Origin: Pecten maximus
Taxonomy: Eukaryota
DNA length: 64,000 nucleotides
Direction: 5' to 3'
Assembly (NCBI RefSeq): GCF_902652985.1
Contig: NC_047016.1
Location: forward strand, 27,590,001-27,654,000
This document shows, in pieces, positions 1 to 44,811 of the stretch (position 1 is the stretch's first letter; every line of letters starts with the position of its first letter). The translations under genes were made by a program, and so were the position numbers. The notes under the pieces were generated by a model. That model did not search any database. It had not been told where the DNA came from and saw only the letters and a list, made by a program, of their open reading frames with translations.

Positions 1-1947
1 TTTGACTTGATCATTAATAACTTTCCGAAGTACCCTAGGTATCAGACAAAATGGAGGAAACAAATATGGCTCGAGACCCTCCCAAGTTATAGTAAAAGCA
101 TCCACATTCTCAGACATAGGGTCTGGCCCCCAAGACACAAATCTGTCCAACTTGTGATTTAATCTTGAGGCGAACAAATCAATGTCAGGTAGGAAAAACT
201 GCAAGCAAGTCCTTTGAAAAATACTTGGGTCTAAACTCCATTCTGTCTGTACCGAGAACTTCCGAGATAATGCATCAGCCTGAACATTCTCAATACCAGG
301 TAAATACTTCGCGGAGACAAAGATGTCCCGCCCATGACACCACAACCAGATATCTTTTGCTAAACAGTTTAGTTTATCTACTGTACCACCCATATTGTTA
401 ATGTAAGCCACTGCAGTAGTATTATCACTCTGAACCATAATCTGAACAGAAGACCACTCTTTACAGAAAGCATGCAGAGATAACTGAATTGCTTTCAACT
501 CGAGATAATTGATGTGTTCTGTAGCCTCCTGTAAAGACCAGAGACCATTTACCTCCCTGGTGCCTAGCACAGCTCCCCACCCCTCCAGTGAGGAATCGGT
601 GGTCAAAATACAGTCAGGATTAGGCTGTCTTATGAGTTTACCATTGGACATAACTAGATTCTCTTGCCACCAAGTAATCTCTGCAATGCTATCTGAACTA
701 AGGGCCACGACCCCATCATACTCGTCCACAGAACCCGCAAGACCCCTTAACTTGTCTGCCTCTAACGAGCGATAATAAAGAGGTCCTAAAGGAATGGCTT
801 TAAATGATGAGGTAAAACATCCAATGAGAGAGGCTAGCAGCCTTATAGAGACATCATGAGTAGACAGAACCTGCTGACACTTCCCTAAAATTTTTTCAAC
901 TTTATCGTCTGGTAAAAATACTTTGAATTGGATTGAATCAATGATATAACCCAAATGACAAATGACCTGTGTAGGTTCTATAATAGACTTCTCTCTATTG
1001 ACCTGGAAGCCCAGGCTAATGAGCAAATCCATTAAGACTTTAGTGTCCATACCACATTTCTCTTTCTGAGCGGCCCTCGTAAGTGAATCGTCAATATAGT
1101 AAAAAACTGATATTGCTCTACTACGAAGGTAACTGTAAACTGGTTTCAAAATTTTTGTAAAAACTCTTGGGGCACATGCCAAACCAAAAGGGAGCGCATG
1201 AAACTCGTATAACGAGCCACGCCACTCAAACCTTAATAATTTCCAAAATTTCGCAGCTATAGGGATGCTAAAATAGGCATCTGTCAAATCAACTGAAGTG
1301 AAATAGTCAAATCTCTGAACTGCCTGCAAGACAATGTCCAGTGTTTCTTGTTTAAAATGTTCGTAAGCCACATGATCATTTAAGTTACGTAAATTTATGA
1401 CTGGGCGAAACTTACCATCTTTCTTCCTAACCAAGAAGATATTGGACAAAAATTCACCATACTCATGTTCACATGCTACTATTGCCCCTTTACTAATCAA
1501 ACCAGCTACCTCACTGTCTATTAATAATTGCTCTGTCTCAGAAAAAGAAATGGGTTTAGGCACAAAAGTCTGGACTGGCCATTTATCACCACCAAACTCT
1601 ATATCATAACCCTGAACTGCGTTCAGAACCCACTCATCGGATGTAATACCTCGCCACTTTTCAATGAATTTGGCAATTCTCCCCGAAGGGCCTGTATCAC
1701 TCACCTTTAGTGCTACTGGTTGACTGTTTTTCCTGCCCCCTGGTTGGCATCGTTGCTGGGGTTGCTCTGAAACTGTCTTCTCCCCCTTCTGTGAAACCTC
1801 GAGTTCCCTCTGTGAGACAGCTGGGACCCTCTGTAGCCTCCTCGCCCCCACGGGGCCTGCCAGTTTTTTGATGACCGTCCACCACGATAACCAGAATTGT
1901 ATCGATTGCCGAAAGCTCGACCTCTCCTCTGCGTGCAACGATTCAAG
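1..1947 (-). CDS. pol: DIRS pol ORF: reverse transcriptase, RNase H and adenine-methyltransferase-like domain (partial, open at the window edge; not in the ORF track)
   Basis: Hand-translated with no stop from 1947 to 1. Motifs: GRIAKFIEKWRGITSDEWVLNAVQGY, FRPVINLRNLN, VDLTDAYFSIPI, LPFGLACAPRVFTK, YYIDD (1101-1087); RNase H TTDSSLEGWGA, HINYLELKA, SDNTTAVAYIN, NVQADALSR; MT-like DLFASRLNHKL and YLFPPF. Confidence 0.93.
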
Positions 1948-2903
1948 TCATCAAGCTCCTTAATTCTCTTCTCTACATTATCACCGAAAAGTTCTGTAGT
2001 GATAGCAGTATCAGCATTACACAACGGATACAAGTGTTTGTAGGGCAATGACGGACGAATAAACCATCTCCGTTTCACTGACAGCTCATAGTGCACATTA
2101 CATAAAAGACTTAGTCCGTCGGACAACGTCTTCTTAATCTCTTTTGAATCAACACTAATCTCTGACGTCCCCTTCTTCCCAAACTTCTGAAATTTGGAGA
2201 CCAAAGTCAGAAAAGGGACCATAGCATGGCCCAGAAGTCTCTGAAAATCTTGCAAGGCTCTATCACATGTCTGGGCGTTGGCCCCAACGAAATTCCACAC
2301 CGCGTGGTTGGTATGCGGGGGCAACAGTGCCTCAATATTCTCAGGAATTTTATACAGTTCGTTCAGTTTACTCACGTCCGCCCTAGTTCTGACGGCAGAA
2401 GTAATGCTCTCCGCTACTTTCGCCGAAAGAGCTGGTCCGAACTTGGCCTTGTCATATATATCCGCTAACTGGAAGACCTCGTCATCCTCAAACTCTTCCG
2501 AACCATCATCCTCGGACTCCTTTTCAAACAAGGATAAATCATCAATCTCTCGACCACGGAGGTCGCCATCTTGGATCTCGCGAACGTCTCGCACGTTCTC
2601 GTCCGAAACTTTTTTCTGAGCCACCACTTTCGTTAACTGCTCTATAGCAGACAACACAGAGTCAAGTTTCTCGTCACCGGCTTTTCTCTTTTTCCTTGGA
2701 ACACTCTCCGACTGCGTCGGTTTTCCTTTCTGTTTACCGACCCTTTTCGACTGAAGCCGAGTCTTGGGTCTGGCCAATTTGACCGGAGAAGTTGCAGCTT
2801 CGCTGCAAACAGTGACGTTAGCTCCAACATTAACGCCGGGCCCCTCAAACTCAAACTCATTATCCGACCCTAACGATAGGGCGTCGTCTGACACGTCAGA
2901 CAT
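1713..2903 (-). CDS. gag: DIRS ORF1 (gag-like protein)
   Basis: ORF-track 404-aa frame with its first ATG at 2903 (MSDVSDD). Acidic/basic low-complexity N-terminus, core PENIEALLPP...ELFGDNV, and an RG-rich C-terminus typical of DIRS ORF1. It overlaps the pol frame. Confidence 0.85.
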   Translation of the reverse strand: MSDVSDDALSLGSDNEFEFEGPGVNVGANVTVCSEAATSPVKLARPKTRLQSKRVGKQKGKPTQSESVPRKKRKAGDEKLDSVLSAIEQLTKVVAQKKVSDENVRDVREIQDGDLRGREIDDLSLFEKESEDDGSEEFEDDEVFQLADIYDKAKFGPALSAKVAESITSAVRTRADVSKLNELYKIPENIEALLPPHTNHAVWNFVGANAQTCDRALQDFQRLLGHAMVPFLTLVSKFQKFGKKGTSEISVDSKEIKKTLSDGLSLLCNVHYELSVKRRWFIRPSLPYKHLYPLCNADTAITTELFGDNVEKRIKELDDLNRCTQRRGRAFGNRYNSGYRGGRSSKNWQAPWGRGGYRGSQLSHRGNSRFHRRGRRQFQSNPSNDANQGAGKTVNQ

Positions 2904-3281
2904 GATAAATAGAAAAAAACCACACACGCACGTGGCTTGTCACGCAAGCGACCAAATCCTGAAAAAATATCAAAACAAAAATAAGAACGTGTGTCTACAA
3001 CAGTCAATACGCGGTTTCGGTAACAAAATACAGAAAATTAAAACGAAGCAAAAAGAATGCTCGCGTTCTTTCAAAAATCACTATTGTATCAACGACACTT
3101 ACCTTCGAGGTGAAAACGGGTAGCACCCTCGTGTGCTCGAAACGAAAGATGGTTTCGTCGTGCGTGCGCGTGCTTTTGTAGGCTAGCTGATTTGCATATT
3201 TTAATCTTCAGATCGAGGTTGTTGTGCATAGAAACGGAAATGCTACCTTACCCCTGATAGCCGGAAGGCTACGGAAAAGAA

Positions 3282-4060
3282 TTTATGGGACACGGCACAG
3301 AAACAGTTACATGTAAAACATGATCACGATATCTATGGAAGATTGAGGGATAAAAGAAATTGCATATCTGAGTTGGCAAAACTTAAATCTGCAATACCAG
3401 CAAATTATAAAAGAATATTAATAGAGGATGAAATGAGGGATGAAGATAATGTTAAACTTTTTGTGAATTCTGAATTGAATATTTTAGATCGTAACAATAC
3501 AACGATCGAACATAAAAAATTAAAACTTAATATGATAAGCATGAAGTTGAATGCCAATACCGAACCTGCTCTTCAGAACAAATTGGGAAAGAGTTTACCA
3601 AAAACAGTTTTCGTGGGGAAAAAAATGTGACTGAATTGTTTTAATATATTAACCTGTCTAAAAATCAAAGAATTTCAATGGAAATGTTTACATCAAATAC
3701 TATATACTGAAATGAAAATAGTAAAATTTTGAAAATGTCATTTCTGCAAAACTGAAAATGAGGATTTCCAACATTTATTCTTCAGATGTGAATATACGAA
3801 ACTTGTGATAAATTATGTAGAAACCATATTAAAGGACCATAAAGATACTTGATATAGAGGGAACTGTTATGCTTGGCTATTCACATGATGATATAGGTAC
3901 GAAAACGTTTGCTACATTGACAAACAGTATAATCTGTAGTATGAAATAGATGATTTTGAAATGTCGGAATGATCTAAAACACAATGAAGGCAACCAAACA
4001 TATAACTCACAAAATTGCAATTATAGAGACAATTAAAAAATGAATTATTGTGTTATTATA
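3282..4060 (+). mobile_element. Decayed L1/Tx1-like non-LTR retrotransposon ORF2 C-terminal fragment
   Basis: Interrupted frames give RDKRNCISELAKLKSAIP, KEFQWKCLHQILYT and the zinc-finger-like KCHFCKTENEDFQHLFFRC (~3733-3790), with stops and frameshifts. Confidence 0.7.
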
Positions 4061-8211: not shown

Positions 8212-8466
8212 ATGGCTACTAGAGACAGAGAAGCTGTAGAAGGTTACATGTATGACTTAAATTCAGATTCTGGACGGGCCAGAAAATTTAGTGAGAAAGG
8301 CATGCAGTACAATATGGAACAGCTTGACAAAAAATACAAGTCTCTATGTAGGTCAGAGAGATATTTAAAAGAAATAGCCACTGAAGATGACGAACCTTTG
8401 GATATTGTGCGTAAAAAATACAGTATGTGGATGAGTGAGGTTCGAAAAATATTTGGAACTGTATGA
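8212..8466 (+). CDS. N-terminal piece of the BEL/Pao polyprotein, out of frame with the main ORF
   Basis: ATG at 8212 (AAGATGG context) gives MATRDREAVEG... and overlaps the main ORF. Removing one G from GAGG near 8440 fuses the two frames (..WMSEFEKYLELY..). Confidence 0.6.
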   Translation: MATRDREAVEGYMYDLNSDSGRARKFSEKGMQYNMEQLDKKYKSLCRSERYLKEIATEDDEPLDIVRKKYSMWMSEVRKIFGTV

Positions 8467-11400
8467 CATTTTGCTGCCCCAAGTCTCTTCCCATGAGCAT
8501 GATGAGTTTGTTCAAAGGTTCAATGAGAATTATGGTTCTGCGAAACAATTCAAAAGTTGGATTGAGAACTACATTTCTTCGCGGAGTGCTATGACATTGA
8601 GTAAGAACACTTTATCTGTAGCCGAAGAGTTGAGTGTGGCTGGCGAGAAAATAGACCAAGGCATTATAAAGAAAACTGATCCAGAAGCCGATGATAATGT
8701 ATCCGTTTCCAGTACTGCCAGTTCATACGCGTCTCTGAAACGTATCAAAGAAGAACAGGTTAGGGTAGAATTAGAGACAAGGAAACTAGCGTTATCAAAG
8801 AAACATGAAATTGAGTTAGCTAAGTTGTCGCTAAAGCTCAAAGAGGAAGAGCTGGAACTTGATACCGGTATAGCTGTCGCTCAAGCGAGAAGCGGAGTAC
8901 TCGACAAGTACGACTCAAATGAAAATCTTAATGCTTCAGTTGACCAGGCTCTTGCGTTCGAGCAACCGCGATTTACCTCCCCTAAGCCGCGACCATTGCC
9001 TGTACGATTTACAGATGAAAGTGTTTGTGCAAGTCCCCCTCCAGTCCTATATGATAGACCTAGACCGCATATGACTGGTGTAGCAGAAGTGTCATCGAGA
9101 ACACTACCTGAACAATATGTTGATTCGTCCCATTCACAAACCGTAGTTCAGTCGGTAGTTCAACATTTAAGAAAACCTGTGGCAGAGGTAAAGAAGTTTA
9201 GTGGAGATCCTCTAGAATATCGCAGATTTATTCGTCAATTTCACTCGAAGGTTGTAATCAACACTGATGATGACGATGAAAGGATGAACTACCTTGAACA
9301 ACTTACATTCGGAGATGCACATAAAGTGGTGTCAGGATTCAGCCATCTTAACGGCGACAAGGCTTATAAGGCAGCCATGAGTCAGCTGGAGGATCGCTAT
9401 GGCGATGAGGAAGTTATAGCGACAGCTTTCATCAAGAAAGCATTAGACTGGCCCACCATTCGTCCTGGAGACCCGAAGGCACTCGATGACTTCTCTTTGT
9501 TTCTTGTAGAGTGTGATAATGCAGTTGGCACAGAATCAAATGGCGTTCTTGACTACTCGGACAATATTAAGAAATTAATGCTCAAACTACCCTTCTATCT
9601 GCATGATAAATGGAGGAACCAAGTATATAAGTACAAGGAAGCAAAGAGGAAGGTTCGGTTCAAGGACTTAGTGAAGTTTGTGAAGACAGAGGCTAAGAAA
9701 ATCAACGACCCTACGTATGGAAGTATTGCCACTGGGACTTCAAGACCAAAGACTCCGCAAAAGATTGCACGTTCCAGCAATGCAGTTCCAGAGATTGTTA
9801 CAGATTCTATACCTAAGAGCACCAGTGACACCGTACCTCCTCCAGCCCCGAATTATAAGTGTTTCTTCTGTGACTCTACTTCCCATTCTCTGGATACTTG
9901 CAAAAAGATAACTGCCAAACCTATGAACGAAAGAGTCAACTTCATTAAAGAAAAGGGATTATGCTTTGGCTGTCTCAAGAAAGGCCACTTGTCGAAGAGA
10001 TGCCGTAATCGTTCCAAGTGCGGCATATGCAATAAAAGTCATCCATCTATCTTACACAACGAAGAAAGCTCGTCAGTTGTTAGTGTATCGAATGCCAGTA
10101 CTGGTTATGCTATCGCAAAAGAAGATCAAAAGGGGGATGTGTCTTGTGCCATGGCGATAGTCCCAGTTAGAATTCGCTTGCGTGATAAACCTCATAGTAT
10201 AGAGACATACGCATTCTTGGATACAGGTAGTAGCGCTTCGTTTTGCACCGAGACAGTTATGAAACAGCTTGGAGCTAGAGGTAAGAAGACACAGCTTACA
10301 CTGAGTACAATGGGTGAGCCATTTATCATGAACACATTTTCCATCAGTGGACTGCAAGTAAGTGACATTGACTCGGAAAATGCTATTGATCTTCCGCGAG
10401 TGTTCACGAAGGAGAAAATGCCCGTGTCTAAGAAGCACATCCCAACACAAGCAGAGGTGTCAAGGTGGGAACACTTAGCAAAGGTTTCACTAGCTGAGCC
10501 TAACTGTGAGATAGGTTTGATGATTGGTAGCAACGTACCAGATGCCTACTCGCCTATTGAGATACTTGCAGGCCCTAGTGGATCACCACATGCTACAAGA
10601 ACTAAGCTTGGATGGGTGGTCTGGAATGTTCTTCGAGAAAGCGGTACTATACAAGTCAACAGAGTTCACATTCAGGATGAGTCTGGAGAAGACATCGAAG
10701 ACATGGTTAAGAGATCTATGAACCTCGATTTCCCTGAGCGTCTTATTGACGATAGAAAAGAAAACTCGAGGGAGGACAAACAATTTTTGGATATGGCTGA
10801 AAACTCTATTTATAAGGATGGAGAACATTACTGCGTTTCGTTGCCATTTCGTAACATGGTCACTATTTTGCCTGATAACTCGGTAATGGCTAAACGGAGA
10901 TTACGCAGCATTGAGAACAGGTTCAAGGCAGATCCCAAGTTCAAAGAAGATTACACTACCTTCATGGAAACACTGTTGGAGAAAGGTCATGCGGAACCAG
11001 CACCTGTGGGATTTGACAAAGGAAAGGTCTGGTACATTCCTCATCATGGTGTATACCACAAGAAAAAGAACAAGATTCGAGTGGTGTTTGATTGCTCTGC
11101 GCGATATCAAGGTGTCTCCCTTAACGACAACTTACTCCAGGGACCTGACCTTACAAACAATCTTCTTGGTGTGTTGATGCGATTCCGGGAGGAACCAGTG
11201 GCTGTCATTGGAGACATTGAAGCGATGTTCTATCAGGTGAAGGTCCCAGTAAATGAAAGAGACTATCTGCGATTTTACTGGTGGCCCAACGGGAATACTG
11301 CGAATGAGCCAAGGAGCTACAGGATGACGGTTCACCTGTTTGGAGCCTCATCATCTCCCAGTGTTTGCAACTTTGCTCTTCAGAAAACTGCAGAGGACAG

Positions 11401-14158
11401 TCAAAAACGGTTTCCCCAAGAAGTTCAGGACACACTGAAAAGAAATATGTATGTCGATGACTGTCTGACCTCCGTTGCTACAGAGAAGAAGGCGATTAGT
11501 CTTATACATGATGTGACTCAAATGTGTAAATCCGGAGGATTCCGACTTACCAAATGGACGAGTAACAGTGATGTGGTTGTGGAATCTATTCCAGAGGGTG
11601 ATCGTGCCCAAGAAGTCAAGTTGTGGAGTCTGGATAGTAAGCCACCTATCGAAAGAGCTCTCGGAGTTTATTGGTTCATGGAGAATGACTCCCTTGGATT
11701 CCAAATTCAGATGAAAGACAAGCCCGTTACTAGAAGAGGTATTCTATCAGTAACCAGCTCAGTGTACGATCCTTTAGGAATTGCATCCCCGTTTGTTCTT
11801 AAGGCCAAGTCAATTCTGCAAAGACTTTGTAGGGATGGTAAGGGATGGGATGAGGAGATCACAGGAAAAGATCTGAAGGACTGGACCGATTGGCTGCTTC
11901 AGCTACCTGAACTAGAGCATGTTACCATTGATCGGTGTTACAAAGGGAAAAACCTCGGCAAGGTAACCTCCTGTCAACTTCATGGTTTCGCAGATGCAAG
12001 TGACATTGGATATGGAATGGTATTCTATCTTCGACTCGTTGATGTCACTGGAAAGATCCACTGCTCGTTCTTGTTCGGGAAGGCGAGAGTCGCACCACTG
12101 AAGGCAGTGACTATACCCCGGATGGAACTTACAGCTGCCTCTTCTCTAGTGAAGTTGGGCAGGATGGTGACAGAACAGCTGAATTACAACATAGATCGTT
12201 TCTTCTTTTGGACTGACAGCACTTCAGTCTTAAGGTATATCGCAAACAAGAATTTGCGCTTCCACACGTTCGTAGCTAACCGCATTGCTCTTATCCACGA
12301 AGCTACGTCGGAAGATGACTGGTATTACATCAACACTAAGGAGAATCCAGCTGATGTTGCATCAAGAGGAACGAGCATTTCGAAGTTGCCTGACTCGTGG
12401 ACTCGTGGACCAATGTTCCTCTGGAAATCCGAACGTGAATGGCCCGTTGTGGAAAAGGATGTTAAGATCGCGGATAAAGAGGATGATCCTGAAATAAGGA
12501 CGACTGCGTGCGCTACATCAGTTGTTTTAGACACAAACAGTGGTGTCGAAAATCTTTTCGACTATTACTCCAACTTTAATAAGCTTAGGAGAGCTACTGG
12601 ATGGCTTATGAGAGCTATGGACAACCTGCAGGGAGCTGTTGAGAGGAGCCGGCAGATAAAACAGGACATCAGCAGTTCAGAATCTGATCCTGTGAAACGC
12701 GACCAGAAAATAAAGTTAGCATTGTCGAAAGAGAGACAGAGTAGACTTCTCAAAGGACAGAAAAACCTTCGTACAGCGTGCCTGTCTGTGGATATTCTGG
12801 AACGAGCTGAAGCCGCGTTGATTAAGTATGAGCAACGAAAGTACTTCGCAGCCGAAAGCAAGATCCTTCACCAGGACAATGGTGTTCAGTCGCGAAAACT
12901 CAAGAAGACTTCGAAATTATTCAAGATGGACCCCTTTGTTAAAGATGGTGTCATTCGCGTAGGAGGGCGTCTTGAAAGAGCTGAAATTTCGTATGATGCA
13001 AAACACCCAGTGGTGTTGCCTAGGGAATCTGTCGTATCGAGACTCGTTGTGGATGATGCCCACAGATCATGTGGTCACTTAGGAAAGAACACTGTTCTTG
13101 CATTCATTCGAGAAAAATATTGGATTGTTGGTGCTCGCACTCTGGTGAAATCTATTCTTTCCAAATGTGTGACTTGTAGGAAATACAGAGCTCCATGTGT
13201 TGAGCAAAAGATGGCAAACTTACCCGCAGAGCGACTCGCAGCTGATCAGCCTCCTTTCAGCAGAACTGGGATGGACTTCTTCGGACCCTTTGAACTGAAA
13301 CGTGGAAGGAGTGTGGTAAAGCGATATGGGGTATTGTTTACCTGTCTTGTGACTCGTGCGGTCCATTTAGAAGTTGCTGCGTCGCTCGATACAGATTCTT
13401 GCATCAACTCCATTCGAAGATTTATCGCTCGCAGAGGAAAACCTGTATTTATTAGATCGGATAACGGAACCAACCTTGTAGGTGCTCAACGAGAAATGAA
13501 GGAAAATATTCAGAAATGGAACACAGACAAAATTCGTGATAACATGTTGCAGAGTAGCATTCAGTGGGAATTCAATCCTCCCTCCGGTTCTCACTTCGGC
13601 GGAGTCTGGGAAAGACTCATTAGGTCTGTGAGACAGGTGTTGTACTCTGTTATGCATGAGCAGAATGCGAAACTAGATGACGAAGGACTTCAGACACTCT
13701 TTTGTGAGGTAGAGGCTATCTTAAATGGACGCCCGTTAACTGAAGCATCGGATAACGTAACTGACCTACGGGTTTTGACCCCAAACCATCTGCTATTGCT
13801 TCAGCCTGGAGAGTATTTCCCACCTGGAACATTCGTCGCCACGGATAACTATGCCAGAAGGAGGTGGAGACAGATACAGTACCTTTCAGATATTTTCTGG
13901 AATAGGTGGACCAAGGAATACTTACCGCTTCTGCAAGGACGCCAGAAATGGATGAAGAAACGACGCAATATGCAGACTGGAGATCTTGTGCTGATCGCTG
14001 ATAGTACACCTAGGCATGCGTGGATAACCGGTAGGATTCAGGAAGTTGTGAAAGACAAACATGACATTGTGCGATTCGTGAAGGTTAAGACCCCTTCCAA
14101 TGTGTTAACGCGTCCAGTGACCAAACTCGTGCTCTTGCTCGAGTCAGACATTGAGTAA
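8435..14158 (+). CDS. BEL/Pao gag-pol polyprotein (Gag, zinc knuckles, aspartic protease, RT, RNase H, integrase)
   Basis: 1907-aa ORF: KFSGDPLEY (Gag); CFFCDSTSHSLDTC, CFGCLKKGHLSKRC, CGICNKSHPSILH (knuckles); FLDTGS (protease); RVVFDCS, GDIEAMF, YVDD (RT); LHGFADAS, PRMEL, WTDS, NPADVASRG (RNase H); HRSCGH..CVTC, DFFGP, SDNGTN, GGVWERLIRSV (integrase). Confidence 0.97.
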   Translation: MRFEKYLELYDILLPQVSSHEHDEFVQRFNENYGSAKQFKSWIENYISSRSAMTLSKNTLSVAEELSVAGEKIDQGIIKKTDPEADDNVSVSSTASSYASLKRIKEEQVRVELETRKLALSKKHEIELAKLSLKLKEEELELDTGIAVAQARSGVLDKYDSNENLNASVDQALAFEQPRFTSPKPRPLPVRFTDESVCASPPPVLYDRPRPHMTGVAEVSSRTLPEQYVDSSHSQTVVQSVVQHLRKPVAEVKKFSGDPLEYRRFIRQFHSKVVINTDDDDERMNYLEQLTFGDAHKVVSGFSHLNGDKAYKAAMSQLEDRYGDEEVIATAFIKKALDWPTIRPGDPKALDDFSLFLVECDNAVGTESNGVLDYSDNIKKLMLKLPFYLHDKWRNQVYKYKEAKRKVRFKDLVKFVKTEAKKINDPTYGSIATGTSRPKTPQKIARSSNAVPEIVTDSIPKSTSDTVPPPAPNYKCFFCDSTSHSLDTCKKITAKPMNERVNFIKEKGLCFGCLKKGHLSKRCRNRSKCGICNKSHPSILHNEESSSVVSVSNASTGYAIAKEDQKGDVSCAMAIVPVRIRLRDKPHSIETYAFLDTGSSASFCTETVMKQLGARGKKTQLTLSTMGEPFIMNTFSISGLQVSDIDSENAIDLPRVFTKEKMPVSKKHIPTQAEVSRWEHLAKVSLAEPNCEIGLMIGSNVPDAYSPIEILAGPSGSPHATRTKLGWVVWNVLRESGTIQVNRVHIQDESGEDIEDMVKRSMNLDFPERLIDDRKENSREDKQFLDMAENSIYKDGEHYCVSLPFRNMVTILPDNSVMAKRRLRSIENRFKADPKFKEDYTTFMETLLEKGHAEPAPVGFDKGKVWYIPHHGVYHKKKNKIRVVFDCSARYQGVSLNDNLLQGPDLTNNLLGVLMRFREEPVAVIGDIEAMFYQVKVPVNERDYLRFYWWPNGNTANEPRSYRMTVHLFGASSSPSVCNFALQKTAEDSQKRFPQEVQDTLKRNMYVDDCLTSVATEKKAISLIHDVTQMCKSGGFRLTKWTSNSDVVVESIPEGDRAQEVKLWSLDSKPPIERALGVYWFMENDSLGFQIQMKDKPVTRRGILSVTSSVYDPLGIASPFVLKAKSILQRLCRDGKGWDEEITGKDLKDWTDWLLQLPELEHVTIDRCYKGKNLGKVTSCQLHGFADASDIGYGMVFYLRLVDVTGKIHCSFLFGKARVAPLKAVTIPRMELTAASSLVKLGRMVTEQLNYNIDRFFFWTDSTSVLRYIANKNLRFHTFVANRIALIHEATSEDDWYYINTKENPADVASRGTSISKLPDSWTRGPMFLWKSEREWPVVEKDVKIADKEDDPEIRTTACATSVVLDTNSGVENLFDYYSNFNKLRRATGWLMRAMDNLQGAVERSRQIKQDISSSESDPVKRDQKIKLALSKERQSRLLKGQKNLRTACLSVDILERAEAALIKYEQRKYFAAESKILHQDNGVQSRKLKKTSKLFKMDPFVKDGVIRVGGRLERAEISYDAKHPVVLPRESVVSRLVVDDAHRSCGHLGKNTVLAFIREKYWIVGARTLVKSILSKCVTCRKYRAPCVEQKMANLPAERLAADQPPFSRTGMDFFGPFELKRGRSVVKRYGVLFTCLVTRAVHLEVAASLDTDSCINSIRRFIARRGKPVFIRSDNGTNLVGAQREMKENIQKWNTDKIRDNMLQSSIQWEFNPPSGSHFGGVWERLIRSVRQVLYSVMHEQNAKLDDEGLQTLFCEVEAILNGRPLTEASDNVTDLRVLTPNHLLLLQPGEYFPPGTFVATDNYARRRWRQIQYLSDIFWNRWTKEYLPLLQGRQKWMKKRRNMQTGDLVLIADSTPRHAWITGRIQEVVKDKHDIVRFVKVKTPSNVLTRPVTKLVLLLESDIE

Positions 14159-18318: not shown

Positions 18319-18740
18319 TTGATCACTCTTAAAACAAAAATCCTGTCTACGTGATATCTGATGATAATAGATTACATAACAGCATCACACCTTCAAGATC
18401 TACGGCTGATTTAATTTTGGTGGCCATCGGTCAAGGTTAAAATCAGTGTTGGGCTTGACCCTTGTGAAATAAAAAAAATCATGTAGACAATACTTCACTA
18501 GCTTTTTGACAGATTTTCACACCATCAAAGTCTACACATGGTTAGATTTTAATGGTCATCGGTCAAGGTGGAAGGTCAAAGGTCACACTGGAAAAATTCT
18601 GAAAAGAAATATAGTATAAAGATAAGATAAAACCAACCCTAACACTATATTTGCTACAGATACATTTTCTTGGTAACTTTAAGTATCAACGTATACAGTA
18701 TTGTGTTTTGTTAATTTGCAGATTGAGCGGTCATTTCAAT

Positions 18741-19547
18741 ATGGATGATATGCTGATGACAGTCGTCCTATCAGTAACATTGCTGTACATGACTGTGTTA
18801 GCGATATGGATTTTTCCAGACCCGATTATTTTACTGTATACAACGTTACATACATTCCTGGTACAAATATCATCGGTGTTCAGGAACAATAGGGCATTGT
18901 CCTGTCTAATTGTTGGAGTATGTGTTTGGCTTCTGGTGGTACATATTGACAGCATAGAAACGAAAAACAAATTAATGAACATTGAAAATACTTTGTTTGA
19001 CTTAAAGGACATTGTCAAATCAAGTATCAAGGACATGAAGAAGATGGAGAAGCATTTCGAAATGTCACTTGAAACTGAAATTCTTGAATTAGAAAATCAC
19101 TTCAGGAAAACACTTCGTGTAAAAATAAACGAGTTGAACAATAAATTATTGCAGAAAATGAGAAACGCTGATAATATTTTAGACGACTTTGATGAAAGAA
19201 CAACAGATATTGAGCGGAAGGTGAAATGTTATGAGAACACATTCCGACATCTAAAGGATTACCTTCAAGAACACGACGAAAAACATGATCAGTTGGAAAA
19301 AGAAATTAATAGACTTTATCAGATGTGTAACAGCTTCATCGAAGAAGGAAAGAAATACCGATTCCACGAGGAGGAAAGAAAAGATAAATATCAGCAGGAT
19401 ATTGGTCGTCATAATCGGGAACCAAGTTTTGTAGTGAAAGTAATTAATTTTGCTATTGATATTGCCGCCGGCGCTATCGGTAACTATCTTGGCGGGGCTG
19501 TCTACAAAGCAGTGTCTTGGGTAGGATCATGGCTTGGCATAACATAG
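18741..19547 (+). CDS. Uncharacterised membrane-anchored coiled-coil protein, paralogue 1 (268 aa, single coding exon)
   Basis: Splice acceptor TTAATTTGCAG (18721), then ATG at 18741. Two hydrophobic segments, a long heptad-rich region and a Gly-rich hydrophobic C-terminus; AATAAA at ~19634. Clear similarity to 23118-23792 with the reading frame preserved. Confidence 0.8.
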   Translation: MDDMLMTVVLSVTLLYMTVLAIWIFPDPIILLYTTLHTFLVQISSVFRNNRALSCLIVGVCVWLLVVHIDSIETKNKLMNIENTLFDLKDIVKSSIKDMKKMEKHFEMSLETEILELENHFRKTLRVKINELNNKLLQKMRNADNILDDFDERTTDIERKVKCYENTFRHLKDYLQEHDEKHDQLEKEINRLYQMCNSFIEEGKKYRFHEEERKDKYQQDIGRHNREPSFVVKVINFAIDIAAGAIGNYLGGAVYKAVSWVGSWLGIT

Positions 19548-22109: not shown

Positions 22110-23117
22110 GTGAAAACGTATTACAACAGATACGAAGAAAGTAAAAGTTGATATAACTTAATAGAGGTGTGTTTTGTATCAATGTGAGGCAATACAACAC
22201 AGGTTAGAGCATGTGAACGAGACACATTCGGTTTGAAGCATATCTCATTATCATGAACAAATTAATTGTTACTTTAGCGCGTCGATATAAGTAATTGACA
22301 AATAATTGTTTTTCAAAAAAATGAAAATAAAAATCTAACACGCTGTTGCTGTATGCTGTTTTGTATGAATGGTAAACGTTTGCAATGATATTCCCTTTTA
22401 GGATTTGAGCTGGGTGTGTAGTACACAGAAATTAATTTCTTCTCATAACCTAATCACTAAGCCAACGAGAACTGCAACAGAAAAAAACGAACTCCAAGCA
22501 GAATATATGTTTATAAAGTAAAAACAGGTAGGATAGGAGGGCGTACGTTTCTTAATATTAGTCGTCCAATATTTATTTCAAGATTTCCAAAACACCCTTT
22601 CTTGTATCTCAAGAAAAAGTTTAAACAAAGCACCACCGATCATAAGGGACACGTTCGATCCATCCATCTGATGGTGCAAGGGGAATAACTCTTATTTAGT
22701 TATGGTAACAAACAGTTGAAGCAACGAAGTTAGTATAGAATAGTTCTCATTCGACGAACACATTCGTCAACATAATTCGCCCATTATGTATTGCCCATTC
22801 GTCGATAGAGCCTACAAATGTCAAACACATCATCTTTCTTCAACAAAACCATCTATTTGTAAACAATTGATGTAAATACAATATTCCATTAGCAATAGTG
22901 TGATATAACTAAGTAAAAACAACACAATTTCTTTATTTCTGAAATGTTTAATGTTCTATCAATAACTAAAGACACTAAAGGGCGATTACCACTATATGCG
23001 AGATACATGCGTTTGCTAATCATGTGTGTGCTTTAGAAGGCTTTCGCGTAACTTAAATTATTTTATTTACAACACAGCTCTTTATTTTGCAGACTAGGCC
23101 CTATTTATCATTTCAAC

Positions 23118-23792
23118 ATGAATGATTTGCTGATCATCATCGCCGCAACTGTATTATTGGTGTATATAACAACGTTAGCAATATGGCTTTCTCCGGGTCG
23201 GATTATTCTACTTCATGCAACGTTACATGCATTCTTGGTACAAATATCATCAGACTTCAGGAACAATAGGACATTGTCCTGTTTAATTTTTGGAGTATGT
23301 GTTTGGCTTCTGGTGGTACATATTGACAACATACAAACGAAAAACAATTTAATACATATTGAAAATCAGTTCAGAAAAACCTTAGAAGTTGAAATAAACG
23401 AATTGAACAATAAGATATTATGGAAAATGACAGCAGCTAATAGCATGATTGACAACCTTGAAGAAAGAACAACGGCTATTGATTGGAAGATGAACCATTA
23501 TCAGACTGTGTTACAGTATCTAAAGGATTACTTTCAGGAACACGACGACAAACATTATCAGTTGGAAAAAGAAATGAATAGACTTTATCAGATGTATAAC
23601 AGCCTCATCCAGGACAGGGCGGAATACCGATTCCGCGAAGAGGAAAGGGAAAATAGATATCAGCAAGAAAGAGCTCGAAAAAAAGATCGGGAAACGAATC
23701 CGATTGTGAAAATAATTAATGCAGTCCTGGGTTTTTTTGTTGACGCTGTTGGTAAGTTTGTGTTCGGGGGTGTCAACAAATTACTAAATTAA
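23118..23792 (+). CDS. Uncharacterised membrane-anchored coiled-coil protein, paralogue 2 (224 aa)
   Basis: Acceptor TTTATTTTGCAG (23092), ATG at 23118. Shares FLVQISSxFRNNRxLSCLIxGVCVWLLVVHID and QLEKExNRLYQM with paralogue 1. A candidate upstream non-coding exon ends AAAA|GTAAGT at 21780. Confidence 0.82.
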   Translation: MNDLLIIIAATVLLVYITTLAIWLSPGRIILLHATLHAFLVQISSDFRNNRTLSCLIFGVCVWLLVVHIDNIQTKNNLIHIENQFRKTLEVEINELNNKILWKMTAANSMIDNLEERTTAIDWKMNHYQTVLQYLKDYFQEHDDKHYQLEKEMNRLYQMYNSLIQDRAEYRFREEERENRYQQERARKKDRETNPIVKIINAVLGFFVDAVGKFVFGGVNKLLN

Positions 23793-37694: not shown

Positions 37695-37900
37695 GTGTCT
37701 ACATTTGGAGTAACAGCCGAACTGTCGGTAGTATTCACTAGAGGGTTCTACAAATGGAGCAACAGCTGAACTGTCGGTAGTATTCACAAAGGGTTCTACA
37801 AATGGAGCAACAGCTGAACTGTCGGTAGTATTCACAGAGGGTTCTACATTTGGAGTAACAATCGAAACTACCGCAGTACTCGTTATTACCCGGAAGACGG
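37695..37900 (+). repeat. ~48-bp tandem repeat (about 4 copies) adjoining the satellite
   Basis: Unit GTTCTACAAATGGAGCAACAGCTGAACTGTCGGTAGTATTCACAGAGG. Confidence 0.85.
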
Positions 37901-37958
37901 AAGCGTTTCTACGTCAGGTGTATCAGTCAAACACTACCAACAGTATCCGCAAGTTTTT

Positions 37959-40900
37959 CTACGTTTGGAGTTACCGTCACAATACGTTTGGAGTTACTGT
38001 CACACTACGTTTGGAGTTACCGTCACACTACGTTTGGAGTTACTGTCACACTACGTTTGGAGTTACCGTCACACTACGTTTGGAGTTACTGTCACACTAC
38101 GTTTGGAGTTACTGTCACACTACGTTTGGAGTTACCGTCACAATACGTTTGGAGTTACCGTCACACTACGTTTGGAGTTACCGTCACACTACGTTTGGAG
38201 TTACCGTCACACTACGTTTGGAGTAACCGTCATACTACGTTTGGAGTTACCGTCACACTACGTTTGGAGTTACCGTCACACTACGTTTGGAGTTATTGTC
38301 GTACTACGTTTGGAGCTACCGCCGCACTACGTTTGGAGTTATTGTCGTACTACGTTTGGAGTTATCGTCACACTACGTTTGGAGTTACCGTCACACTACG
38401 TTTGGAGTTATTGTCGTACTACGTTTGGAGTTATCGTCACACTACGTCTGGAGTTACCGTCACACTACGTTTGGAGTTACCGTCACACTACGTTTGGAGT
38501 TACCGTCACAATACGTTTGGAGTTACCGTCACACTACGTTTGAAGTTACCGTTACACTACGTTTGGAGTTACCGTCACACTACGTTTGGAGTTATTGTCA
38601 CACTACGTTTGGAGTTACCGTTACACTACGTTTGGAGTTATTGTCGTACAACGTTTGGAGTTAATGTCACACTACGTTTGGAGTTACCGTCACACTACGT
38701 TTGGAGTTATCGTCACACTACGTTTGGAGTTATTGTCGTACTACGTTTGGAGTTATTGTCGTACTACGTTTGGAGTTACCGTCACACTACGTTTGGAGTT
38801 ACCGTCACACTACGTTTGGAGTTACCGTCACACTACGTTTGGAGTTACCGTCACACTACGTTTGGAGTTATTGTGGTACTACGTTTGCAGTTACCGTCAC
38901 ACTACGTCTGGAGTTACCGTCACACTACGTTTGGAGTTACCGTCACAATACGTTTGGAGATACCGTCGCACTACGTTTGGAGCTACCGTCGCACTACGTT
39001 TGGAGTAACCGTCACACTACGTTTGGAGTTACCGTCACACTACGTTTGGAGTTATCGTCACAATACGTTTGGAGTTACCGTCGCACTACGTTTGGAGTTA
39101 CCGTTACACTACGTTTGGAGTTACCGTCACACTACGTTTGGAGTTACCGTCACACTACGTTTGGAGTTACCGTCACAATACGTTTGGAGTTACCGTCACA
39201 CTACGTTTGGAGTTATTGTCGTACTACGTTTGCAGTTACCGTCACACTACGTTTGGAGTTACCGTCACACTACGTTTGGAGTTATTGTCGTACTACGTTT
39301 GCAGTTACCGTCACACTACGTTTGGAGCTACCGTCACACTACGTTTGGAGTTACCGTCACACTACGTTTGGAGTTACCGTCACACTACGTTTGGAGTTAT
39401 TGTCGTACTACGTTTGGAGTTATTGTCGTACTACGTTTAGAGTTACCGTCACACTACGTTTGGAGTTACTGTCACACTACGTTTGGAGTTATTGTCACAC
39501 TACGTTTGGAGTTACCGTCACACTACGTTTGGAGTTACTGTCACACTACGTTTGGAGTTACCGTCACACTACGTTTGGAGTTATTGTCGTACTACGTTTG
39601 GAGTTACCGTCACACTACGTTTGGAGTTACCGTCGTACTACGTTTGGAGTTACCGTCGTACTACGTTTGGAGTTACCGTCGCACTACGTTTGGAGTTATT
39701 GTCGTACTACGTTTGGAGTTATTGTCGTACTACGTTTAGAGTTACCGTCACACTACGTTTGGAGTTACCGTCGTACTACGTTTGGAGTTACCGTCGTACT
39801 ACGTTTGGAGTTACCGTCGCACTACGTTTGGAGTTATTGTCGTACTACGTTTGGAGTTATTGTCGTTGTACTACGTTTGGAGTTACCGTCACACTACGTT
39901 TGGAGTTACCGTCACACTACGTTTGGAGTTACCGTCACACTACATTTGGAGTTACCGTCACACTACGTTTGGAGTTATTGTCGTACTACGTTTGGAGTAA
40001 CCGTCACACTACGTTTGGAGTTACCGTCACACTACGTTTGGAGTTATTGTCGTACTACGTTTGGAGTTACCGTCACACTACGTTTGGAGTTACCGTAACA
40101 CTACGTTTGGAGTTACCGTCACACTACGTTTGGAGTTATTGTCGTACTACGTTTGGAGTTACCGTCACACTACGTTTGGAGTTACCGTCACACTACGTTT
40201 GGAGCTACCGTAACACTACGTTTGGAGTTACCGTCACACTACGTTTGGAGTTACCGTCGTACTACTTTTGGAGTTACAGTCACACTACGTTTGGAGTTAT
40301 TGTCGTACTACGTTTGGAGTTACCGTTACACTACGTTTGGAGTTACCGTCACACTACGTTTGGAGTTACCGTAACACTACGTTTGGAGTAACCGTCACAA
40401 TACGTTTGGAGTTACCGTTACACTACGTTTGGAGTTACCGTCACACTACGTTTGGAGTTACTGTCACAATACGTTTGGAGTTACCGTCACACTACGTTTG
40501 GAGTTACCGTCACAATACGTTTGGAGTTACCGTCACAATACGTTTGGAGTTACCGTCACACTACGTTTGGAGTTACCGTCACAATACGTTTGGAGTTATT
40601 GTCGTACTACGTTTAGAGTTACCGTCACACTACGTTTGGAGTTACCGTCGTACTACGTTTGGAGTTACCGTCGTACTACGTTTGGAGTTACCGTCGCACT
40701 ACGTTTTGAGTTATTGTCGTACTACGTTTGGAGTTATTGTCGTTGTACTACGTTTGGAGTTACCGTCACACTACGTTTGGAGTTACCGTCACACTACGTT
40801 TGGAGTTACCGTCACACTACATTTGGAGTTACCGTCACACTACGTTTGGAGTTATTGTCGTACTACGTTTGGAGTAACCGTCACACTACGTTTGGAGTTA

Positions 40901-43900
40901 CCGTCACACTACGTTTGGAGTTATTGTCGTACTACGTTTGGAGTTACCGTCACACTACGTTTGGAGTTACCGTAACACTACGTTTGGAGTTACCGTCACA
41001 CTACGTTTGGAGTTATTGTCGTACTACGTTTGGAGTTACCGTCACACTACGTTTGGAGTTACCGTCACACTACGTTTGGAGCTACCGTAACACTACGTTT
41101 GGAGTTACCGTCACACTACGTTTGGAGTTACCGTCGTACTACTTTTGGAGTTACAGTCACACTACGTTTGGAGTTATTGTCGTACTACGTTTGGAGTTAC
41201 CGTTACACTGCGTTTGGAGTTACCGTCACACTACGTTTGGAGTTACCGTAACACTACGTTTGGAGTAACCGTCACAATACGTTTGGAGTTACCGTTACAC
41301 TACGTTTGGAGTTACCGTCACACTACGTTTGGAGTTACTGTCACAATACGTTTGGAGTTACCGTCACACTACGTTTGGAGTTACCGTCACAATACGTTTG
41401 GAGTTACCGTCACAATACGTTTGGAGTTACCGTCACACTACGTTTGGAGTTACCGTCACAATACGTTTGGAGTTATCGTCACACTACGTTTGGAGTTACC
41501 GTCACACTACGTTTGGAGTTACCGTCACAATACGTTTGGAGTTACCGTCACAATACGTTTGGAGTTACCGTCACAATACGTTTGGAGTTACCGTTACACT
41601 ACGTGTGGAGTTACCGTCACAATACGTTTGGAGTTACCGTCACAATACGTTTGGAGTTACAGTCACACTACGTTTGGAGTTATTGTCGTACTACGTTTGG
41701 AGTTACCGTCACAATACGTTTGGAGTTACCGCCACAATACGTTTGGAGTTATTGTCGTACTACGTTTGGAGTTACCGTCACAATGCGTTTGGAGTTACCG
41801 TCACACTACGTTTGGAGTTACCGTCACAATACGTTTGGAGTTACCGTCACAATACGTTTGGAGTTATTGTCGTACTACGTTTGGAGTTACCGTCACAATA
41901 CGTTTGGAGTTACCGTCATAATACGTTTGGAGTTATCGTCACACTACGTTAGGAGTTACCGTCACACTACGTTTGGAGTTACCGTTACTCTACGTTTGGA
42001 GTTACCGTCGTACTACGTTTGGAGTTATCGTCACACTACGTTTGGAGTTACCGTTACACTACGTTTGGAGTTATTGTCGTACTACTTTTGGAGTTACCGT
42101 CACACTACGTTTGGAGTTACGGTCACACTACGTTTGGAGTTACCGTCACACTACGTTTGGAGTTACCGTTACACTACGTTTGGAGTTACCGTCACACTAC
42201 GTTTGGAATTACCGTCACAATACGTTTGGAGTTACCGTCACACTACGTTTGGAGTTACCGTTACACTACGTTTGGAGTTACCGTCACACTACGTTTGGAG
42301 TTATCGTCACACTACGTTTGGAGTTACCGTCACACTACGTTTGGAGTTACCGTCACAATACGTTTGGAGTTACCGTCACAATACGTTTGGAGTTACCGTC
42401 ACAATACGTTTGGAGTTACCGTTACTCTACGTTTGGAGTTACCGTCGTACTACGTTTGGAGTTATCGTCACACTACGTTTGGAGTTACCGTTACACTACG
42501 TTTGGAGTTACCGTCAGAATACGTTTGGAGTTACGGTCACACTACGTTTGGAGTTACCGTCACACTACGTTTGGAGTTACCGTTACACTACGTTTGGAGT
42601 TACCGTCACACTACGTTTGGAATTACCGTCACAATACGTTTGGAGTTACCGTCACACTACGTTTGGAGTTACCGTCACACTACGTTTGGAGTTACCGTCA
42701 CACTACGTTTGAAGTTACCGTCACACTACGTTTGGAGTTACCGTCACACTACGTTTGGAGTTACCGTCACAATACGTTTGGAGTTAACGTCACACTACGT
42801 TTGGAGTTACCGTCACAATACGTTTGGAGTAACCGTCACACTACGTTTGAAGTTACTGTCACACTACGTTTGGAGTTACCGTCATAATACGTTTGGAGTT
42901 ATCGTCACACTACGTTTAGAGTTACCGTCACAATGCGTTTGGAGTTACCGTCACACTACGTTTGGAGTTACCGTTACACTACGTTTGGAGTTACCGTCAC
43001 AATACGTTTGGAGTTACCGTCACACTACGTTTGGAGTTACAGTCACACTACGTTTGGAGTTACCGTCACACTACGTTTGGAGTTATTGTCGTACTACGTT
43101 TGAAGTTACCGTCACAATGCGTTTGAAGTTACTGTCACACTACGTTTGGAGTTACCGTCACACTACGTTTGGAGTTACCGTCTTACTACTTTTGGAGTTA
43201 CAGTCACACTACGTTTGGAGTTATTGTCGTACTACGTTTGGAGTTACCGTCACACTACGTTTGGAGTTACTGTCACACTACGTTTGGAGTTACCGTCACA
43301 CTACGTTTGGAGTTACCGTTACACTACGTTTGGAGTTACCGTCGTACTACTTTTGGAGCTACCGTCACACTACGTTTGGAGTTACCGGCACACTACGTTT
43401 GGAGTTACCGGCACACTACGTTTGGAGTTACCGTCGTACTACGTTTGGAGTTATTGTCGTACTACGTTTGGAGTTACCGTCACAATACGTTTGGAGTTAC
43501 CGTCGTACTACGTTTGGAGTTACCGTCACACTACGTTTTGAGTTACCGTCACACTACGTTTGGAGTTACCGTCACACTACGTTTGGAGTTACCGTCACAA
43601 TACGTTTGGAGTTACCGTCACAATACGTTTGGAGTTACTGTCACAATACGTTTGGAGTTACCGTCACACTACGTTTGGAGTTATTGTCGTACTACGTTTG
43701 GAGTTACCGTCACAATACGTTTGGAGTTACCGTCACACTACGTTTGGAGTTACCGTTACACTACGTTTGGAGTTACCGTCACACTACGTTTGGAGTTACC
43801 GTCACACTACGTTTGGAGTTACCGTTACACTACGTTTGGAGTTACCGTCACACTACGTTTAGAGTTACCGTCACACTACGTTTGGAGTTACCGTCGTACT

Positions 43901-44753
43901 ACTTTTGGAGTTACAGTCACACTACGTTTGGAGTTATTGTCGTACTACGTTTGGAGTTACCGTCACACTACGTTTGGAGTTACTGTCACACTACGTTTGG
44001 AGTTACCGTCACACTACGTTTGGAGTTACCGTCACACTACGTTTGGAGTTACTGTCACACTACGTTTGGAGTTACCGTTACACTACGTTTGGAGTTACCG
44101 TCACACTACGTTTGGAGTTACCGTTACACTACGTTTGGAGTTACTGTCACACTACGTTTGGAGTTATTGTCGTACAACGTTTGGAGTTACCGTCACACTA
44201 CGTTTGGAGCTACCGCCGCACTACGTTTGGAGTTACCGTCACACTACGTTTGGAGTTACCGTCACACTACGTTTGGAGTTACCGTCACAATACGTTTGGA
44301 GTTATTGTCGTACTACGTTTAGAGTTACCGTTACACTACGTTTGGAGTTACCGTCGTACTACTTTTGGAGTTACCGTCACACTACGTTTGGAGTTACCGT
44401 CACACTACGTTTGGAGTTACCGTTACACTACGTTTGGAGTTACTGTCACACTACGTTTGGAGTTACCGTCATACTACGTTTGGAGTTACTGTCACACTAC
44501 GTTTGGAGTTACCGTCACACTACGTTTGGAGTTACCGTTACACTACGTTTGGAGTTATTGTCGTACTACGTTTAGAGTTACCGTAACACTACGTTTGGAG
44601 TTATTGTCGTACTACTTTTGGAGTTACAGTCACACTACGTTTGGAGTTACCGTCGTACTACGTTTGGAGTTACCGTCACACTACGTTTGGAGTTATTGTC
44701 GTACTACGTTTAGAGTTACCGTAACACTACGTTTGGAGTTACCGTCACACTAC
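37959..44753 (+). repeat. 23-bp satellite array (~295 copies)
   Basis: Consensus CTACGTTTGGAGTTACCGTCACA with recurrent variants (TTATTGTCGTA, CACAATACG, CCGTTACA). No unique spacers. Confidence 0.98.
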
Positions 44754-44811
44754 CAGCAGTACACTTAAGCGTGAACTACGTTTAAAGTAACAGCCGAACT
44801 CTGAAAATGTG

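Follow-up and report, generated by a model that had tools for sequence, protein, structure and literature searches.

In a 64,000-nt stretch of the Pecten maximus genome (NC_047016.1; hereafter the window), we have identified a DIRS1-like retrotransposon, whose pol gene ribosomes likely reach through a programmed -1 frameshift close to the end of gag, giving a Gag-Pol protein from the unspliced RNA and, as is also likely, a Gag-YR protein from an RNA that has lost pol as an intron. Ribosome slippage and the two fusion proteins are what we infer from a slippery heptamer in the phase of gag, the absence of an early ATG in pol, the conservation of the heptamer among relatives, and a splice joint that keeps the shifted frame.

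Together with the neighbouring DNA (L039), the window gives a complete 5.0-kb element on the minus strand, in which the gag, pol (761 codons) and YR ORFs are all intact. The terminal features and the gag/pol junction are as follows.

3240..3282, minus strand: 5' end of the element, beginning ATT; these 43 nt complement the left ICR close to the 3' end (L039 7741-7783 against 3096-3138, 100%)
3149..3254, minus strand: left inverted terminal repeat (ITR), 106 nt, 100% complementary to the right ITR, which lies beyond the window
1713..2903, minus strand: gag-like ORF1, 396 aa (ATG at 2903, TAG at 1715-1713)
1863..1869, minus strand: slippery heptamer A_AAA_AAC in gag phase, the predicted -1 shift site (gag codons TCA AAA AAC at 1871-1863)
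1857..1862, minus strand: 6-nt spacer TGGCAG, from the sequence
1844..1856, minus strand: 5-bp GC hairpin GCCCC-GTG-GGGGC, a weak candidate stimulator, from sequence and folding
1..1947, minus strand: pol frame, 761 codons stop to stop, ending at L039:4163, with the RVT_1 match
1705..1863, minus strand: linker of 53 codons in the pol frame, from the predicted shift site to the splice donor (by arithmetic from coordinates)

According to excerpts of PMC3266345, DIRS1-like elements are defined by an NTT terminus and two ICRs; the present element starts with ATT, and its ICRs of 43 and 72 nt are adjacent and 100% matched to both element ends. The ITR arms of 106 nt are also 100% complementary, and YR is the third ORF and overlaps pol, both as in DIRS1-like elements. 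Pfam matches were found for PF00078 (RVT_1) in pol (E 1e-16) and PF00589 (Phage_integrase) in YR (E 7e-9). The gag-like ORF1 had no Pfam match and is named by its position, and no Pfam match to RNase H or methyltransferase domains was found on the in-window part of pol; by eye, motifs of these two appear to be present in pol. Within the DIRS1-like superfamily, the element is an ordinary one. One contig of run X1 skips the entire element, and this empty site points to a recent insertion. Five genomic copies of the family were found, three of which keep the heptamer; the remaining two, L003 and L004, share a change that destroys it, and the RT frame is broken in both. Also, a GT-AG intron of a host gene (L039 484-910, plus strand), about 2 kb past the element's 3' end, is skipped in a deep X1 contig, suggesting that the element lies near or within a transcribed gene.

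The original prediction held that pol has no usable ATG, and indeed its frame is open from 1947 with the first ATG only at 1050, downstream of the YYIDD motif (1101-1087). Its further statements, namely that pol is the -1 frame of gag and that A_AAA_AAC at 1869-1863 stands in the correct gag phase, were borne out in their coordinates as well. The -1 frame is open beyond the heptamer, and no other strict X_XXY_YYZ occurs over the 450 nt leading up to the RT N-terminus. Because the four other copies likewise have their first pol ATG at least 267 nt into the RT-proximal domain, the absence of an early ATG does not reflect damage to the copy in the window. A_AAA_AAC is among the most shifty heptamers on mammalian ribosomes, as stated in excerpts of PMC5009743. 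One in-phase heptamer is nonetheless expected by chance with P of about 0.25 when gag codons are synonymously recoded, and the case thus rests on the relatives.

RT searches of the same genome gave loci that were clustered into 24 families at 80% DNA identity, and 13 families with gag and pol in the -1 relation were chosen by eye; L026, L032 and L076, whose frames are broken by indels, as well as long-overlap and distant families were left out of the counts. A strict in-phase heptamer was present within the last 180 nt of gag in 12 of the 13 families, compared with 2/13 and 0/13 for the other two phases and 2/13 for the preceding 180 nt of gag. The expectation is 3.9 families from synonymous recoding (P 5e-7) and 2.7 from codon shuffling. 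In the thirteenth family, T_TTT_TTG takes the place of the strict heptamer; it is also seen close to the site in the uncounted L026 and L032. In 10 of the 12 families no stop interrupts the pol frame between the heptamer and RT, the other two being decayed copies with an intervening stop.

A metagenome search then provided an out-of-sample set of 80 loci in 55 families, 37 of which were scored automatically; one family that coincides with an own-genome family, six with too little upstream sequence and 11 lacking a gag ORF of their own were set aside. Pol is -1 relative to gag in 34 of the 37, and the in-phase strict heptamer is found in 29 and missing in eight, compared with 10 and 3 families for the two remaining phases, 3 for the upstream control and 11.6 expected in phase (P 2e-10, relatedness ignored). 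The families are related to one another, and the P values of both sets overstate their independence. Most of these heptamers are T_TTT_TTA (14), A_AAA_AAC (9) or T_TTA_AAC (3). Among the 34 families with the -1 relation, the heptamer lies inside the open pol frame in 26, and no pol ATG precedes the conserved N-terminus in 19, an ATG being present upstream of it in the other 15. In a tree of RT sequences, from which L033 and L038 were dropped, the six-row clade containing the window element (support 99/94) carries three different heptamers. The slippery character and the phase are thus kept while the letters turn over, which argues for selection on function. Loss of the heptamer or of its phase among relatives had been named beforehand as evidence against the shift; the strict in-phase signal is instead conserved beyond chance in both sets (12/13 and 29/37).

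Regarding the RNA downstream of the heptamer, the spacer and the 5-bp hairpin proposed in the original prediction lie where they were placed, and the hairpin forms in the MFE structure, but its role as a specific stimulator was not supported. In pseudoknot-free folding, the region 3' of the heptamer is no stabler than dinucleotide shuffles (z +0.30; -0.4 and +0.6 in a second analysis), and in the sister family one arm of the hairpin is altered and the hairpin sits 9 nt farther from the heptamer; we therefore do not favor it in that role. A larger three-way fold, beginning 1 nt behind the heptamer, extends over a 3-nt indel found in the other copies and RNA contigs. Across 40 families, the 50 nt 3' of the heptamer are more stably folded than their shuffles (mean z -1.22, Stouffer -7.7), compared with mean z of -0.18 upstream and -0.17 farther downstream; z is below -1.5 in 16 of the 40, and the window element is not among these strong ones. 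As a class, then, the relatives appear to have 3' structure, while the stimulator of the window element itself would be weak and is a candidate only.

The second part of the reading concerns splicing, for which the following features are relevant.

2959..3102, minus strand: GT-AG leader intron upstream of gag, 144 nt; joint in one of four runs (X2, with a short side of 32 letters)
1699..1707, minus strand: splice donor AAG/GTGAGT; the intron starts at 1704, in phase 0 of pol and 9 nt past the gag stop
1..1704, minus strand: in-window part of the 1850-nt pol intron, which ends at L039:4356, 145 nt beyond the window start; GT-AG joint in four of four runs
L039:4355-3360: YR exon (PF00589), following the pol intron in frame

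Contigs from all four runs (three studies; X1 is recorded as RNA but contains DNA, and X2-X4 are RNA by guess only) skip 1850 nt with GT-AG ends at the joint L039 4354>6205, with at least 255 letters on each side. These contigs differ from the window by one or two listed letters and small gaps in this region, none of them at the heptamer, and all five genomic copies found continue unbroken across the donor. Removal of the intron takes out RT and retains gag together with the predicted shift site. Both splice sites are in phase 0, the donor relative to pol and the acceptor relative to the YR ORF; the 53 codons after the predicted shift site therefore run in frame into YR and would be common to Gag-Pol and Gag-YR, and the same slip would hence also make the recombinase. 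The Gag-Pol frameshift of the original prediction is thus supported, whereas the prediction missed that pol is an intron, the removal of which places YR in the shifted frame.

The donor is also a feature of the relatives. When scored with an approximate frequency matrix, the best donor past the gag stop is in phase 0 of pol in all 13 own-genome families and in 23 of the 34 metagenome families, the remaining metagenome families having a phase-1 donor (five) or none (six); any donor was seen in only 3 of 51 control windows. Such a fixed phase shows that pol is translated across the donor, from upstream, and is by itself no proof of Gag-YR. All such donors are within 44 nt of the gag stop and would fall inside the zone of about 50 nt that is spared junction-dependent decay. 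The sister family has the same phase-0 acceptor and no ATG at the YR start. Upstream of YR, a scan for acceptors with a crude and noisy pyrimidine rule gave phase-0 sites in the closest families and none or mixed phases in many others. Splicing in a second family (L055) was checked in four runs, where only scattered diverged pieces appeared, with donor and acceptor uncovered.

Some of the relatives dispense with a separate gag frame. The 11 metagenome families lacking a separate gag ORF include, among the loci listed, six in which an open frame longer than 1 kb leads from the gag-like region into RT and a seventh in which it measures 438 nt; one of the seven is perhaps a decayed copy. Gag and pol share a single open frame, or almost do, in these seven loci, and a Gag-Pol fusion is accordingly tolerated. 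Gag and pol were seen in one frame in L095, L110, L099, L130, L159, L116, L111 and L157. Several of them keep a donor-like GT at the gag/pol junction, in phase 0 in L095 and L110 and, by eye, in phase 2 in L130 and L159; splicing from such a donor may yield Gag-YR or Gag alone.

Three other explanations need to be weighed. Pol might be made by the -1 shift, with YR produced separately from the spliced RNA through reinitiation at its own ATG after termination of gag. This ATG does lie where the conserved YR N-terminus begins, 18 nt past the acceptor and, once the RNA is spliced, 26 nt past the gag stop, and several relatives have an ATG at the same position. Many relatives, including the sister family, nevertheless have Leu or Val at the YR start with no ATG before the conserved part, and the splice joint is exactly in frame with the shifted frame. 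Reinitiation after an ORF as long as 396 codons is inefficient, which also counts against this route for YR, and we consider it unlikely though deserving of attention.

A start for pol might otherwise be supplied by a rarer spliced or internally initiated mRNA, for example by splicing the leader with its ATG at 3229 to an acceptor within the gag/pol overlap or by starting at the CTG immediately after the heptamer. Splicing does occur in the element, the frame from ATG 3229 is open as far as the leader donor, an acceptor-like site is present at about 1809, and the CTG is flanked by A at -3 and G at +4. The leader ORF, however, ends in phase 1, while the sole pyrimidine-rich acceptor is in phase 0 and phase-1 AGs have at most 6 pyrimidines in 12; acceptor-like sites in the overlap show no clear enrichment, occurring in 25/47 families against 19/47 controls, and are scattered in place and phase. 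As for internal starts, 18 ATGs separate the gag ATG from the heptamer, and the CTG is not conserved after the heptamer in most relatives. A joint giving pol an ATG, the other observation named in advance as speaking against the shift, was seen in no contig of the four runs, contigs being apt to drop rare forms. An alternative pol mRNA would, moreover, leave the conserved in-phase heptamers unexplained, and we regard this explanation as improbable. The heptamer could finally be a by-product of gag residues (K-N, F-L, L-N) or of A/T runs in a dead copy that has lost its pol start, as the single-site chance given above and the two sibling copies without the heptamer would allow. The synonymous-recoding null retains the amino acids, yet it expects only 3.9/13 and 11.6/37 families; the element has three intact ORFs, 100% matched ITRs and an empty site in one run, and an early pol ATG is absent in all siblings. 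This by-product reading is already largely refuted and very improbable.

We thus favor translation of both enzymes through the frameshift. Most ribosomes would make Gag, and a fraction would slip by -1 at A_AAA_AAC; slippage on the unspliced genomic RNA would give Gag-Pol, and slippage on the spliced RNA, from which RT is removed in frame, would give Gag-YR. By arithmetic, the products would be a 396-aa Gag, a Gag-Pol of about 1080 aa and a Gag-YR of about 731 aa. In our estimate, Pol very probably comes by the -1 shift at A_AAA_AAC, and it is reasonably probable that YR comes by the same shift.

A further group of DIRS-like relatives has a long pol/YR overlap. In its young, high-copy families (L040, L041, L042, L046 and L058), gag ends in TCC TGA C; L040-L042 and L046 constitute three young families. 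The gag stops are located as follows.

L040: C1, 24.90 Mb
L041: C7, 8.95 Mb
L042: C6, 25.32 Mb
L046: C18, 22.87 Mb
L058: C18, 27.55 Mb

The gag end reads CCC TAG G in L044 and CAC TAG G in L043. Pol of this clade is in the +1 frame and free of ATG for 101-133 codons, the frame of gag itself is open for 921-1012 codons past the stop into YR in four of six copies, and no donor scores in four of four long-overlap copies. UCC_UGA is the usual +1 site of antizyme (PMC5009743, in excerpt). The TCC-TGA-C stop may accordingly serve an antizyme-like +1 shift and readthrough at one stop codon, or else a 3' splice site: its letters also look like a branch point with a pyrimidine tract and CAG behind it, and this is a live alternative to the former. 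Also, the long-overlap relatives L088 and L117 lack a donor and have an A-run heptamer that immediately precedes the gag stop, and in L088 the -1 and +1/-2 frames are both open across RT. For DIRS1-like elements in general, we lean slightly to the view that both enzymes are Gag fusions from one AUG, in which a short linker frame is entered by one -1 shift, and whether the whole RT/RNase H gene is spliced out settles if RT or the recombinase comes next; the long pol/YR overlap would be an alternative solution, with readthrough to YR and +1 pol at TCC-TGA-C in one clade of this genome.

Several other features of the window were noticed. From an ATG within the left ITR, a frame of 42 codons reaches to the leader donor (3229-3103, minus strand); after splicing, this leader ORF would overlap the beginning of gag in a different frame and might reduce gag translation. 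On the plus strand, 8435-14158 is an intact single-ORF BEL/Pao retrotransposon of 1907 codons with Peptidase_A17, RVT_1, DUF1759, DUF5641 and integrase zinc finger domains. Two similar intronless ORFs (18615-19547 and 23052-23792, plus strand; 310 and 246 codons stop to stop) have hydrophobic N-termini and coiled-coil-like bodies and are likely tandem paralogues. Three long minisatellite arrays (37800-44800, 50700-52550 and 56000-57750) produce spurious open frames and strong strand skews.

A -1 shift at gag/pol is textbook knowledge for retroviruses. The window element shares with retroviral and Ty3/gypsy-type elements an X_XXY_YYZ near the gag end, a -1 pol without its own start and, in many relatives, 3' structure; it differs from them in that its pol has no protease or integrase, its stimulator is weak and a candidate only, and two enzymes would share the shifted frame via splicing. 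Splicing is known to set the product ratio in copia-type elements and retroviruses, where, as predicted here, an element's spliced RNA yields other proteins than its genomic RNA; the intron of the window element is, however, the RT/RNase H gene itself, and its spliced RNA retains full gag and the shift site. Heptamers of -1 frameshifting are described in excerpts of PMC5009743, which do not mention DIRS, and the HIV-1 site U_UUU_UUA in the abstract of PMC4373837. Programmed frameshifting has been proposed for another YR retrotransposon, Ngaro, with a shift into the YR ORF (Poulter and Butler 2015, as quoted in PMC13003380); that proposal concerns the RT/RH-YR overlap, whereas here the predicted shift is at gag/pol and YR would be reached via splicing.

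With DIRS1-like elements, as described in passages of PMC3266345, PMC7192593, PMC5633606, PMC3950715 and PMC9210276, the window element shares the gag, pol and YR ORFs, ITRs, two ICRs, the NTT start and a length of about 5 kb. Its pol/YR overlap is short, as in about half of the 28 DIRS1-like elements described in PMC3266345 (in excerpt). The passages on DIRS1-like elements are silent on translation of pol and YR, whereas the window element has a conserved -1 signal and a pol-removing intron. Excerpts of PMC3266345, PMC7192593, PMC13003380, PMC6681497, PMC3783388, PMC9210276, PMC4495291, PMC4157794, PMC5633606 and PMC3950715 hold no account of a gag/pol frameshift or a pol-removing splice in these elements, and full-text literature searches likewise turned up no paper on either; Poulter and Butler 2015, Goodwin and Poulter 2001/2004 and Repbase reports may mention a frameshift. 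New here are the pol-skipping GT-AG joint in RNA contigs, the out-of-sample heptamer counts and the TCC-TGA-C clade.

In conclusion, how DIRS elements express pol and the recombinase from three overlapping ORFs is unexplained in the parts of the literature examined, and the shift site and the in-frame pol intron predict Gag-Pol and Gag-YR products instead of free RT and YR. This reading would account for the lack of a usable ATG in many annotated pol and YR ORFs of DIRS elements, and would offer a reason for the 2-kb double-coding overlap present in some elements and not in others. It would also add dozens of natural -1 cassettes from animal-associated transposons.
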